From assembly GCF_056746865.1 (NCBI RefSeq), contig NZ_CM163382.1: a DNA stretch of 64,000 bases; one strand, written 5' to 3'. Shown piece by piece: positions 3,073 to 63,798 of the stretch. Both the position numbers and the translations under genes were made by a program. Positions within the stretch are counted from its first letter, which is position 1. Every line of letters begins with the position of its first letter. The notes beneath the pieces are model-generated. The model was not told where the DNA came from and ran no database searches. It was given only the letters and a program-made list of their open reading frames with translations.

Positions 3073-4416
3073 GTGAGCAATCTGTCGCTCGATTTTTCGG
3101 ATAACACTTTTCAACCTCTGGCCGCGCGTATGCGGCCAGAAAATTTAGCACAGTATATCGGTCAGCAACATTTGCTGGCTGCGGGGAAGCCGTTGCCGCG
3201 TGCAATCGAAGCCGGGCATTTGCATTCGATGATCCTCTGGGGGCCACCGGGTACCGGCAAAACAACCCTCGCTGAAGTGATTGCCCGCTATGCGAACGCT
3301 GATGTGGAACGTATTTCTGCCGTTACTTCTGGCGTGAAAGAGATTCGCGAGGCGATCGAGCGCGCTCGGCAAAACCGCAATGCTGGTCGCCGCACTATTC
3401 TTTTTGTTGACGAAGTTCACCGTTTCAACAAAAGCCAGCAGGATGCGTTTCTGCCACATATTGAAGACGGCACCATCACTTTTATTGGTGCAACCACTGA
3501 AAACCCGTCATTTGAGCTTAATTCGGCACTGCTTTCCCGTGCCCGTGTCTATCTGCTGAAATCCCTGAGTACAGAGGATATTGAGCAAGTACTGACTCAG
3601 GCGATGGAAGACAAAACCCGTGGCTATGGTGGTCAGGATATTGTTCTGCCAGATGAAACACGACGCGCCATTGCTGAACTGGTGAATGGCGACGCGCGCC
3701 GGGCGTTAAATACGCTGGAAATGATGGCGGATATGGCCGAAGTCGATGATAGCGGTAAGCGGGTCCTGAAGCCTGAATTACTGACCGAAATCGCCGGTGA
3801 ACGTAGCGCCCGCTTTGATAACAAAGGCGATCGCTTTTACGATCTCATTTCCGCACTGCATAAGTCGGTACGTGGTAGCGCACCCGATGCGGCGCTGTAC
3901 TGGTATGCACGAATTATTACTGCCGGTGGCGATCCGTTATATGTCGCGCGTCGCTGTCTGGCGATAGCGTCGGAAGATGTGGGTAATGCTGATCCACGAG
4001 CGATGCAGGTGGCAATTGCGGCCTGGGATTGCTTTACCCGAGTTGGCCCGGCGGAAGGTGAACGCGCCATTGCTCAGGCGATTGTTTACCTGGCCTGCGC
4101 GCCAAAAAGCAACGCTGTCTACACTGCGTTTAAAGCCGCGCTGGCGGATGCTCGCGAACGTCCGGATTATGACGTGCCGGTTCATTTGCGTAATGCGCCG
4201 ACGAAATTAATGAAGGAAATGGGCTACGGGCAGGAATATCGTTACGCTCATGATGAAGCAAACGCTTATGCTGCCGGTGAGGTTTATTTCCCGCCGGAAA
4301 TAGCACAAACACGCTATTATTTCCCGACAAACAGGGGCCTTGAAGGCAAGATTGGCGAAAAGCTCGCCTGGCTGGCTGAACAGGATCAAAATAGCCCCAT
4401 AAAACGCTACCGTTAA
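3073..4416 (+). CDS. rarA: Replication-associated recombination protein A (AAA+ ATPase)
   Basis: 447 aa, GTG start, Walker [10 protein letters not shown]. Confidence 0.93.
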
Positions 4417-8492: not shown

Positions 8493-9110
8493 ATGACAAC
8501 CCAGTATGGATTTTTTATTGATTCCAGCCGTTGCACCGGTTGCAAAACCTGCGAGCTGGCCTGTAAAGACTATAAAGATCTGACGCCGGAAGTCAGCTTC
8601 CGCCGCATTTATGAATATGCTGGCGGTGACTGGCAGGAAGATAACGGTGTCTGGCATCAGAACGTGTTTGCCTACTATCTGTCGATTTCATGTAACCACT
8701 GCGAAGATCCGGCTTGTACTAAAGTCTGCCCGAGTGGTGCGATGCATAAACGTGAAGATGGTTTTGTTGTAGTCGATGAAGATGTGTGCATTGGCTGCCG
8801 CTACTGCCATATGGCTTGCCCGTATGGCGCACCGCAATATAACGAAACGAAAGGCCATATGACCAAATGCGATGGTTGTTATGACCGTGTTGCGGAGGGG
8901 AAAAAGCCGATCTGTGTTGAATCTTGCCCGCTGCGGGCGCTGGATTTCGGCCCTATCGACGAGCTGCGTAAAAAACATGGCGATCTGGCGGCCGTTGCGC
9001 CGTTGCCGCGAGCTCACTTTACCAAACCGAATATTGTGATCAAACCCAATGCCAACAGCCGCCCGACCGGGGATACCACTGGCTATCTGGCAAACCCGAA
9101 GGAGGTGTGA
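8493..9110 (+). CDS. dmsB: DMSO reductase Fe-S subunit DmsB
   Basis: 205 aa with four ferredoxin-type Cys clusters. Confidence 0.96.
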   Translation: MTTQYGFFIDSSRCTGCKTCELACKDYKDLTPEVSFRRIYEYAGGDWQEDNGVWHQNVFAYYLSISCNHCEDPACTKVCPSGAMHKREDGFVVVDEDVCIGCRYCHMACPYGAPQYNETKGHMTKCDGCYDRVAEGKKPICVESCPLRALDFGPIDELRKKHGDLAAVAPLPRAHFTKPNIVIKPNANSRPTGDTTGYLANPKEV

Positions 9111-56673: not shown

Positions 56674-56690
56674 TACTTTTGAGCCAAAAT

Positions 56691-56709
56691 GCCTGATGCG
56701 ACGCTTGAC
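56691..56709. repeat. Left half of a palindromic unit (REP/PU) split by the IS insertion
   Basis: gcctgatgcgacgcttgac; joins with 58146..58163 to rebuild a full PU that differs at one base from the intact PU at 58236..58272. Confidence 0.8.
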
Positions 56710-57236
56710 TGAACTGCACCCCAAATGTTGGACATAATCTGACATCTGAAGGTGCAGTTTATGAAACATTCATTTGAAGTAAAACTTGCCGCTGTAAATC
56801 ATTACCTGGCTGGTCATGCAGGCATCATTTCTACGGCAAAACTCTTTCAACTTTCTCACACCAGCCTCTCACACTGGATTAATCTTTTTCTTCTTCACGG
56901 TCCTCGGGCACTGGATTGCAGACACAAGCGTAGCTATTCTCCTGAAGATAAACTTTGCGTGGTTCTTTATGCTCTCGGGCATTCTGAGTCTCTACCCCGG
57001 GTAGCTGCCCGGTTTAACATTCCCAGCCACAACACGGTTAAAAACTGGATAAAAGGCTACCGCAAATCTGGTAATGAGGCCTTTATCAGGCGCAGGAAGG
57101 AGAAAAGCATGACCCGTTCTGATGATACCCATGAAAACGAGGCAAACATGACGCCGGAAGAGATGAAGAATGAGCTGCGTTATCTTCGCGCAGAAAATGC
57201 ATATCTGAAAGCCATGCAGGAGCATCTCCTGGAAAA

Positions 57237-58312
<1,076 letters not shown>

Positions 58313-58314
58313 TA

Positions 58315-61027: not shown

Positions 61028-61983
61028 AATTGTTTTCCTTCCAGTTGAGTGGGCTGCCAGATACGCTGGCGAATATCGACTTTTTTCGGCATCAGACGGT
61101 TTTCATAAAACAGATCTGCCGTTTGCTGCTGTAAGGCGGCAACCTCGGCGTTAACCGGTTTGATGGTGGTAGGGGGGCGATGATCTAAATAAGAGGCAAT
61201 CACCGGCGTTGGTAAGCCCATCGTTTTTGCCAGTAAAGCGATGCTTTGCTCGCGCTGGCTGCGGGTTAACGCATCGGCCTCACTAAAGGTTGCCAGTACG
61301 CCCTGAATAAAAGCGCCGTTTTTTTCTGCATACGGACGGGCAGCCAGATAAAACGATCCGGTTTGATTGAGATCGGTACCGTCTTTTAGCACCCGCACGC
61401 CGCCCTGTAATAATGCAGCGGAGTAGTAGGGATCCCAGATAGCCCATGCGTCGACGTTACCTTGCTGGAACGCGGCGCGGGCATCGGCAGGCGTCAGGTA
61501 AGTGGGCTGGATATCCGTGAATTTAAGCCCGGCCTGGCGTAGTGCGCGTAGTAAAAGATTGTGCGAGCTGGAACCTTTCTGAAAGGCAACTTTGTGACCT
61601 TTAAGATCGGCTACGGTTTTGATCGGGCTGTTTTCTGGCACCAGAATCACTTCGGCTTTGGGCTTCGGCGGCTCGACGCCCACGTACACCAAATCAGCCC
61701 CGGCAGCCTGGGCAAAGATTGGCGGAATATCTCCGGTACTGCCGAGATCAATACTGCCAACGTTTAACGCCTCCAGCATCTGTGGGCCAGCGGGGAACTC
61801 CACCCAGGAGATTTTGGTTTGCGGATAGCGTTTTTCCAGTAACTGGTGGCTTTTTGCCAGCACCATACCAATACTGCCTTTCTGATAGCCTATACGTAAC
61901 GCTTCAGGAGAGGATTCTGCAGCAACCGCAATCGTAGAGACGCTAAGTAATCCCGCCAGCGCCAGTTGAATGATGTTACGCAT
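61024..61983 (-). CDS. ssuA: Aliphatic sulfonate ABC transporter periplasmic binding protein
   Basis: 319 aa from [21 protein letters not shown]...; the ORF-track start at 62118 is an upstream extension into ssuE. Confidence 0.93.
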
Positions 61984-62551
61984 GGGCATTACCTCGCAGA
62001 GACAGAAGATCGGGAACCTGAATATCGCGGCGGTGCAGCGCCTGCCAGAAAGTTTCCAGCGCGGTATCAAGACGGGTTTGCAGATTTGGCGTGAACTGCG
62101 GCTTGTGGTGGTAATCAATCACCTGTGAGTCATCGGCAAACACGCCGTGCAGGATCTCCTGGGCTTTCAGCGCACTTAAAACTGGCTTAAGGGCATAATC
62201 GACCGCCAGCAGATGGGCCACCGTACCGCCCGTCGCCAGCGGTAGCACCACTTTGCCTTGCAACGCACGTTCTGGCAGTAGGTCGAGCAGGGTTTTCAGC
62301 GCACCGGAATAGGCGGCTTTATACACAGGCGTGGCGACAATCAGCCCATCGGCCTGTTGCAGCTGTTCGGTGAAGGTTTTGAGTGCCGGACTATCGAAAC
62401 GAGCATAAAGTAGATCTTCCGGGGCGAAGTTTTGCAGATTCCAGTGATAAACCTCTACATCCAGGCCATTTAGTTTTTCCCGCGCATATTCCAGCAAGGA
62501 GCTGGAACGAGAAGGAAAGCGAGGACTACCCGCCAGGGTGATGACACGCAT
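61976..62551 (-). CDS. ssuE: NADPH-dependent FMN reductase
   Basis: 191 aa MRVITLAGSPRFPSRSSSLLEYAREKLNGL... Confidence 0.95.
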   Translation of the reverse strand: MRVITLAGSPRFPSRSSSLLEYAREKLNGLDVEVYHWNLQNFAPEDLLYARFDSPALKTFTEQLQQADGLIVATPVYKAAYSGALKTLLDLLPERALQGKVVLPLATGGTVAHLLAVDYALKPVLSALKAQEILHGVFADDSQVIDYHHKPQFTPNLQTRLDTALETFWQALHRRDIQVPDLLSLRGNAHA

Positions 62552-62686
62552 ACTCTCTCCTTATAACCAATTGTTCTTGTTTTGTTAACATTGATAACAA
62601 TTCGGTCAGTCTGACAGAGGGCGTCCGCGAGTCGAAATGATTTATCTGAGGAAGAAAAGCCAAAAAAAGCATAAAAAAAGCGCAAT

Positions 62687-62702
62687 AAGAAAACGTTTGC
62701 TA
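62687..62702 (+). promoter_or_regulatory. Candidate PurR box in the pyrD promoter
   Basis: AAGAAAACGTTTGCTA matches the reverse complement of the PurR operator ACGCAAACGTTTTCTT at 14 of 16 positions; about 90 bp upstream of the pyrD ATG. Confidence 0.5.
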
Positions 62703-62787
62703 TTTATTGCCACAGGTCAATTCCCTTTTGGTCCGAACTCGCACATAATACGCCCCCGGTTTGCACACCGGGAATCCAGGAGAGTTC

Positions 62788-63798
62788 ATGTACTACCCCT
62801 TCGTTCGTAAAGCCCTTTTCCAGCTCGATCCAGAGCGCGCTCATGAGTTTACTTTTCAGCAATTACGCCGTATTACAGGAACGCCGTTTGAAGCACTGGT
62901 GCGGCAGAAAGTGCCTGCGAAACCTGTTAACTGCATGGGCCTGACGTTTAAAAATCCGCTTGGTCTGGCAGCCGGTCTTGATAAAGACGGGGAGTGCATT
63001 GACGCGTTAGGCGCGATGGGATTTGGATCGATCGAGATCGGTACCGTCACGCCACGTCCACAGCCAGGTAATGACAAGCCGCGTCTCTTTCGTCTGGTAG
63101 ATGCCGAAGGTTTGATCAACCGTATGGGCTTTAATAATCTTGGCGTTGATAACCTCGTAGAGAACGTAAAAAAAGCCCATTATGATGGCGTCCTGGGTAT
63201 TAACATCGGCAAAAATAAAGATACGCCGGTGGAGCAGGGTAAAGATGACTATCTGATTTGTATGGAAAAAATCTATGCTTATGCGGGATATATCGCCATC
63301 AATATTTCATCGCCGAATACACCGGGATTACGTACTCTGCAATATGGCGAAGCGCTGGATGATCTCTTAACCGCGATTAAAAATAAGCAAAATGATTTGC
63401 AAGCGATGCACCATAAATATGTGCCGATCGCAGTGAAGATCGCGCCGGATCTTTCTGAAGAAGAATTGATCCAGGTTGCCGATAGTTTAGTTCGCCATAA
63501 TATTGATGGCGTTATTGCAACCAATACCACGCTCGATCGTTCTCTGGTTCAGGGAATGAAAAATTGTGATCAAACCGGTGGCTTAAGTGGTCGTCCGCTT
63601 CAGTTAAAAAGCACCGAAATTATTCGCCGTTTATCACAGGAATTAAATGGTCGCTTACCGATCATCGGTGTTGGCGGCATCGACTCGGTTATCGCTGCGC
63701 GTGAAAAGATTGCTGCGGGGGCCTCACTGGTGCAAATTTATTCTGGTTTTATTTTTAAAGGTCCGCCGCTGATTAAAGAAATCGTTACCCATATCTAA
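62788..63798 (+). CDS. pyrD: Dihydroorotate dehydrogenase (quinone)
   Basis: 336 aa from [29 protein letters not shown]...; the ORF-track start at 62761 is an upstream extension. Confidence 0.96.

Follow-up and report, generated by a model that had tools for sequence, protein, structure and literature searches.

The 64-kb stretch of DNA analysed here (the window) carries ssuE and pyrD as divergent neighbours without the fimbrial genes that separate them in Escherichia coli K-12, and we favour the reading that this is the ancestral, uninterrupted ssuE–pyrD promoter region and that the elf operon is the derived state of other lineages. What is absent between the two genes is the gamma-1 chaperone-usher operon ELF/Ycb, which comprises an usher (elfC), two chaperones (elfD and ycbF) and four subunits (elfA, elfG, ycbU and ycbV). 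In K-12 and in most A, B1, C, E and F strains, a chaperone-usher operon of ~7.1 kb, AT-richer than its surroundings, lies between the block next to ssuE and the PurR operator of pyrD, in place of ~75–95 bp of the old spacer; on the favoured reading it would have come into Escherichia through homologous recombination in the flanking sequences. The window lineage, like all B2 strains, has the allele without the insertion, its ssuE and pyrD promoters back to back in 236 bp and its PurR box and PyrD leader intact; the strain would consequently be unable to make ELF fimbriae.

The presence/absence polymorphism of ELF is already published, and the finding in the window is a correct rediscovery of it, real but ordinary. 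The present analysis adds the polarity of the change (the empty allele being, on the favoured reading, ancestral for the family), the exact breakpoints and a junction common to E. coli, Pseudocitrobacter and Escherichia sp. E1V33. If the polarity is right, the K-12 arrangement, which serves as the model for ssu and pyrD regulation, would be the derived one. Annotation should treat the absence of elf at this site as neither a deletion nor a fault of the assembly.

Organization of the ssuE–pyrD locus

The genes preceding pyrD in the window are, in order, pepN, ssuB, ssuC, ssuD, ssuA and ssuE (Table 1); ssuE is also annotated in the identical record NZ_CP030768.1. An earlier note on this DNA had described ssuE and pyrD as adjacent, 236 bp apart and with no fimbrial open reading frame or fragment between them, and its coordinates proved exact, with the ssuE start codon ending at 62551 and the pyrD ATG occupying 62788..62790. 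The seven K-12 Elf/Ycb proteins gave no tblastn match at E ≤ 1e-5 anywhere in the 64-kb window. The gene order that the note had given for MG1655 was also right, and the two genes are not natively adjacent in K-12: in NC_000913.3 a 7,255-bp interval containing elfA, elfD, elfC, elfG, ycbU, ycbV and ycbF separates ssuE (b0937) from pyrD (b0945).

Table 1 Features of the ssuE–pyrD locus, in window coordinates
Feature	Position	Strand	Evidence or remark
ssuE (NADPH-dependent FMN reductase; first gene of ssuEADCB)	61976..62551	-	Open reading frame; tblastn, 98% identity to K-12 SsuE
ssuE–pyrD intergenic region, divergent, 'empty' allele without elf	62552..62787	.	236 bp
ssuE-proximal block, present in both alleles	62552..62613	-	98–100% identical to K-12, ST405 and CFT073; conserved across genera
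Segment specific to the empty allele	62614..62688	.	75 bp; K-12 counterpart is 7,093 bp (L001 7576..14668)
Predicted PurR operator of pyrD, AAGAAAACGTTTGCTA	62687..62702	+	Match to PurR motifs
Allele-diagnostic differences beside the PurR box	62700..62714	+	GC-TATTTATTG in the window versus GCGTTTTTTTTG in K-12 and Pseudocitrobacter
PyrD leader	62720..62793	+	Rfam RF02373, 97.9 bits versus a gathering score of 47, E = 1.6e-17
-10-like CATAAT in PyrD leader	62744..62749	+	
Hairpin CCCGG-N8-CCGGG in PyrD leader	62755..62772	+	Next to Shine–Dalgarno sequence
Shine–Dalgarno sequence AGGAGAG in PyrD leader	62778..62784	+	
pyrD (quinone-dependent dihydroorotate dehydrogenase)	62788..63798	+	Open reading frame; 98.2% nucleotide identity to K-12

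Breakpoints relative to K-12

BLAST alignment of window positions 61900..63400 with the K-12 locus (L001) returned two blocks, which together locate the breakpoints. The ssuE-side block (96% identity) ends at window position 62613, equivalent to L001 7575, and the pyrD-side block (98% identity) starts at 62689, equivalent to L001 14669, which is 10 bp past the ycbF stop codon. Where the window has 75 bp, K-12 has seven fimbrial genes and a promoter region of 27% GC. No part of the K-12 insert showed meaningful nucleotide similarity to the 75-bp segment in either orientation, and when all complete E. coli genomes were searched at high sensitivity with a 261-bp query, elf-positive genomes matched only the outer parts of the query and never its middle. 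Within one species, the drop in identity is abrupt, from 98–100% across the 62 bp beside ssuE to no detectable similarity beyond.

Outside this segment the two alleles are much alike, with 96–100% identity between the window and K-12 in both flanking genes, in the 62 bp nearest to ssuE, in the PyrD leader and in the PurR box core. The sequences bordering the PurR box differ, however, reading CGG...GCGT with a T8 run in K-12 and AAG...GCTA with TTTATTG in the window.

Conservation of the spacer across Enterobacteriaceae outgroups

One genome per bacterial species was scanned with PyrD, which gave 80 loci with 10-kb flanks that were sorted by tblastn with K-12 proteins. In 69 of these 80 enterobacterial species loci ssuE directly adjoins pyrD, with a gap of 227–356 bp (median 247 bp). 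The adjacent loci include E. whittamii, Escherichia sp. MOD1-EC7003 and a divergent genome labelled E. coli SCPM-O-B-8794, together with many from Citrobacter, Enterobacter, Kosakonia, Kluyvera, Klebsiella, Leclercia, Cedecea and Buttiauxella. Five loci, among them those of E. albertii and Salmonella enterica subsp. arizonae, have pepN next to pyrD and no ssu operon, and two have other cargo in the interval. An elf operon between ssuE and pyrD was present in three loci and one incomplete contig, from Escherichia sp. E1V33 and Pseudocitrobacter.

In a MAFFT alignment with 13 outgroup spacers, the window spacer is colinear and homologous over its full length, and the order of the conserved motifs is kept from end to end. 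The 75 bp missing from K-12 align, motif by motif, with the spacers of E. whittamii, two further Escherichia species-level genomes, Citrobacter, Enterobacter, Kosakonia, Kluyvera, Klebsiella and Leclercia; from Escherichia through Klebsiella, CAGTCTGACAGAG, AAATGATTTAT, AAAAA-GCATAA and the pur box recur in that order. Even in E. albertii, where ssu has been lost, the right half of the 75-bp sequence persists upstream of the pur box. In gene order, spacer length and motif order the window thus resembles the enterobacterial spacer that we take as ancestral, from which it differs only by ordinary sequence divergence between motifs.

The earlier note had offered two explanations for the adjacency, an ancestral empty site and a clean lineage-specific deletion; the first agrees with the outgroup alignment of the 75 bp, and the second fares poorly. 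A clean de novo deletion of the 7-kb operon in the window lineage would fit the lack of any visible remnant, which a precise deletion could also produce. A deletion cannot, however, regenerate sequence that is absent from elf-positive chromosomes, and the 75 bp are missing from elf-positive genomes and orthologous to outgroup spacers. The flank of the PurR box is likewise of the empty-allele type (GC-TATTTATTG) and not of the elf-allele type. At the ssuE–pyrD junction of the window there is no fimbrial remnant, IS element, repeat or truncated gene, whereas genuinely damaged elf operons look different and keep remnants, as in H80, which retains only bases 1–488 of elfC, and H41, which has an IS1 in elfC. 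We therefore regard a clean deletion as highly improbable.

Candidate origin of the elf operon

Across the 80 species loci and E. coli, elf occupies the ssuE–pyrD site only in E. coli, Escherichia sp. E1V33 and Pseudocitrobacter. The K-12 insert has a GC content of 46.5%, compared with 54.5% on the ssu side and 50.6% on the pyrD side, and the ssuE–elfA spacer falls to 27%. The right junction is common to K-12, the elf-positive O102:H6 genome, E1V33 and three Pseudocitrobacter genomes, the ycbF stop codon lying ~10 bp before the pur box in each. K-12 and Pseudocitrobacter share an identical 22-nucleotide sequence there, GAAAACGTTTGCGTTTTTTTTG, in place of which GC-TATTTATTG occurs in all empty-site Escherichia, in Citrobacter amalonaticus and in S. 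arizonae. Genera further away, for example Kluyvera, carry a GCG and T-run type beside the pur box (GCGT followed by the T-run), as in the elf allele and unlike the window. Between E1V33 and K-12, nucleotide identity is 74–84% for the elf genes and 87–94% for the flanks.

The recurrence of one right junction and one type of pur-box flank, together with the abrupt loss of identity, suggests that elf spread as a ready-made haplotype through recombination in conserved flanks. A stronger version holds that no de novo insertion of elf took place in E. coli and that a complete ssuE–elf–pyrD haplotype, donated by a distant enterobacterium, was taken up through homologous recombination in its flanking parts. 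The ycbF-stop/PurR-box junction common to Pseudocitrobacter, E1V33 and E. coli supports this version, as does the elf-side pur-box/T-run variant, which is the type found outside the Escherichia, Citrobacter and Salmonella group; we put it forward tentatively, as a possibility somewhat short of even. Were it correct, the activator region upstream of ssuE and the PurR operator of pyrD, both as studied in K-12, would be imported sequence, and about a quarter of E. coli, including the B2 and ST69 ExPEC lineages, would keep the ancestral regulatory region, which might then regulate sulfonate use and pyrimidine synthesis differently.

A separate candidate, a degenerate copy of the old spacer with a duplicated PurR box in the K-12 ssuE–elfA spacer (that is, a long target duplication), was rejected: semi-global alignments evaluated with 500 shuffles gave z = 0.3–2.1, which is not significant.

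Lineage of the window and the route to the empty allele

Over its final 10 kb the window matches dozens of genomes at 100% identity. Records with the titles 'O15:H18 strain ST69' and 'UPEC69' are among these, and going by the record titles the window lineage is apparently ST69, which we take to belong to phylogroup D. In its flanks the window is closest to an O102:H6 genome, presumably ST405 and also of phylogroup D (97–99% identity, compared with 94–98% for CFT073 of phylogroup B2 and 95–98% for K-12). The O102:H6 genome is elf-positive, and for PepN and PyrD it encodes the same proteins as the window lineage. Because this relative carries elf and the window lineage does not, the presence or absence of elf has changed within phylogroup D, a point against the favoured reading.

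CFT073 (NC_004431.1) has the empty site. Like the window, it carries divergent ssuE and pyrD across 236 bp, with a spacer at least 99.2% identical and an equal PurR box and leader; the flanking genes, in contrast, diverge by 2–6%, the background of the window is nearer to phylogroup D, and the window, unlike CFT073, has an IS1397 between pepN and ssuB. The spacers of the two genomes differ at one position in 236 bp (99.6% identity), a degree of conservation that leaves too little signal for dating the allele.

Two routes to the empty allele in the window lineage have to be weighed. One is secondary loss, in which homologous recombination, crossing over inside ssuE and inside pyrD, exchanged the operon of an elf-bearing phylogroup D ancestor for a spacer of ancestral type donated by a B2 or similar elf-negative strain. 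The elf-positive ST405 genome with its identical PepN and PyrD is in line with such a replacement, as are a spacer 99.6% identical to that of CFT073 between flanking genes that differ by 2.4–4.3%, and the multiple gains or losses inferred in the literature (Clark and Maresso 2021). When ST69 was compared with ST405, CFT073, K-12 and MOD1-EC7003 in 150-bp SNP windows, however, the pattern was mosaic with no discrete B2-like tract, although this comparison has little power. Right up to the spacer, the flanks also resemble ST405 and K-12 at least as much as they do CFT073, and constraint can explain the low divergence of the spacer, given that E. whittamii is ~96% identical to the window across the spacer and only ~88% across the flanking genes. 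We thus consider replacement unlikely. The other route, vertical retention of the ancestral allele in the window lineage, appears moderately likely to us.

Frequency of the empty site among E. coli genomes

A contiguous empty site with a spacer at least 99.2% identical to that of the window occurs in 1,351–1,352 of 5,426 complete E. coli genomes. The usher gene elfC is present in 4,036 of the same genomes, at 4,050 places (median one per genome), and ssuE and pyrD are split in ~4,073, near the elfC-positive count. The empty-site and elfC-positive sets look complementary, summing to 5,388 of the 5,426 genomes.

These counts bear on whether the source genome might carry elf at a location outside ssuE–pyrD. 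Relocation would be compatible with the window itself, in that only 64 kb of the source genome were read. A relocated copy in empty-site genomes is unlikely, however, because the two sets (1,352 and 4,036 genomes) account for nearly all genomes, with 4,050 elfC places, and the number of genomes with a split ssuE–pyrD pair is close to the elfC count. No Elf homologue lies within the window, and published surveys report ELF in no B2 strains and its absence from many D strains. For the source genome, we judge relocation to have very little probability.

In the published surveys, Ycb fimbriae are linked to phylogroups A, B1, D and E, whose counterpart in B2 strains is the related Auf fimbriae (Wurpel et al. 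2013). ELF was found in 0 of 39 and 0 of 195 B2 strains, is lacking in many D strains and is present in >97% of A, B1, C, E and F strains; it was concluded to have been gained or lost several times, as its presence in >97% of phylogroup F strains implies (Clark and Maresso 2021).

Regulatory elements of the spacer

The ssuE-proximal block contains the Shine–Dalgarno region, a conserved TAACATTGATAACA and the start of CAGTCTGACAGAG (62607..62619). Judging from position and conservation, the core promoter of ssuE probably sits in these 62 bp, which are common with K-12; a scan of the spacer for consensus sigma-70 promoters returned no site. The adjoining 75-bp segment holds two further conserved motifs, AAATGATTTAT (62635..62645) and AAAAAGCATAA, the former of which lies upstream of the ssuE-side shared block and is missing from the K-12 allele. 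The conserved spacer motifs may have regulatory roles.

On the pyrD side, the PurR-like box that the earlier note had called intact is indeed present as AAGAAAACGTTTGCTA. This putative 16-bp pur box is an imperfect palindrome near ACGCAAACGTTTGCGT with a central CG, and it matches the purF motif AAGAAAACGTTTGCGT at 14 of 16 positions; its central 12 bp, GAAAACGTTTGC, are identical in the purF motif and in the ChIP-defined K-12 pyrD motif, CGGAAAACGTTTGCGT (Cho et al. 2011, PMC3159470). Binding of PurR at pyrD and the resulting repression are established for the K-12 allele only (PMC3159470). Downstream of the box, the PyrD leader matches the full Rfam model (positions 1–74) and is identical in sequence to K-12.

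Variation in the pepN–pyrD interval

Further differences were observed between pepN and ssuB. The window has a copy of the IS3-family element IS1397, so annotated in the identical record, at 56701..58141 inside a REP/BIME array; the sequences flanking this copy, GCCTGATGCGACGCTTGAC and GCGTCTTATCAGGCCTAC, are continuous in CFT073. All 60 genomes among the matches listed at 100% identity over 10 kb carry this copy, which therefore marks the clone of the window. The pepN–ssuB spacer is also dimorphic in E. coli (window 56674..58314; L001 3236..3277; L084 24023..24216): a short form of 42 bp with a simple hairpin occurs in K-12, ST405 and 3,166 genomes, and a long form with ~200 bp or more of REP/BIME units occurs in CFT073, the window, E. 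whittamii and the remaining genomes. Strict linkage of elf with the short form was rejected on the counts, with 3,166 short-form genomes compared with 4,036 that have elfC.

Within the block, one patch of ssuA in ST405 (L083 ~8515..8665) is hyperdivergent, with 25 to 30 mismatches per 150 bp to ST69 and K-12 and 18 to CFT073; elsewhere in the block ST405 and ST69 differ by 0–10 mismatches per 150-bp interval. The pattern of mismatches suggests a short imported tract.

Among the 80 species loci, the content of the pepN–pyrD interval varies widely. The ssuEADCB operon is wholly missing and pepN adjoins pyrD in L006 (E. albertii), L014 (S. enterica arizonae), L041, L060 and L077, and only ssuE remains between pepN and pyrD, without ssuADCB, in Kluyvera, Phytobacter and others (L040, L045, L049, L055–L059, L061, L065 and L078). 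Klebsiella oxytoca and K. spallanzanii (L070 and L079) keep ssuE, ssuC and ssuB and are missing ssuD and ssuA. In Superficieibacter electus (L047 4950..9990) a sodium/solute symporter and nagB-, nagA- and ROK/NagC-like genes replace ssu, and in Enterobacter sp. BIGb0383 (L048 6450..9990) a cluster of xapA, a nucleoside permease and a LysR regulator does so. The interval appears to be a replacement hotspot.

Two of the record names also merit comment. The locus titled Chryseobacterium sp. 18061 (L038) has the full enterobacterial pepN–ssuBCDAE–pyrD–zapC synteny, 91% PyrD identity and coordinates nearly equal to those of Citrobacter sp. 18056 (L054), and this assembly is probably mislabelled or contaminated. 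The flanking genes of the locus titled Escherichia coli SCPM-O-B-8794 (L004) are only 88–94% identical to those of the window and other E. coli, a level that would fit a cryptic Escherichia clade or a separate species, so that the name of the record is probably too narrow.
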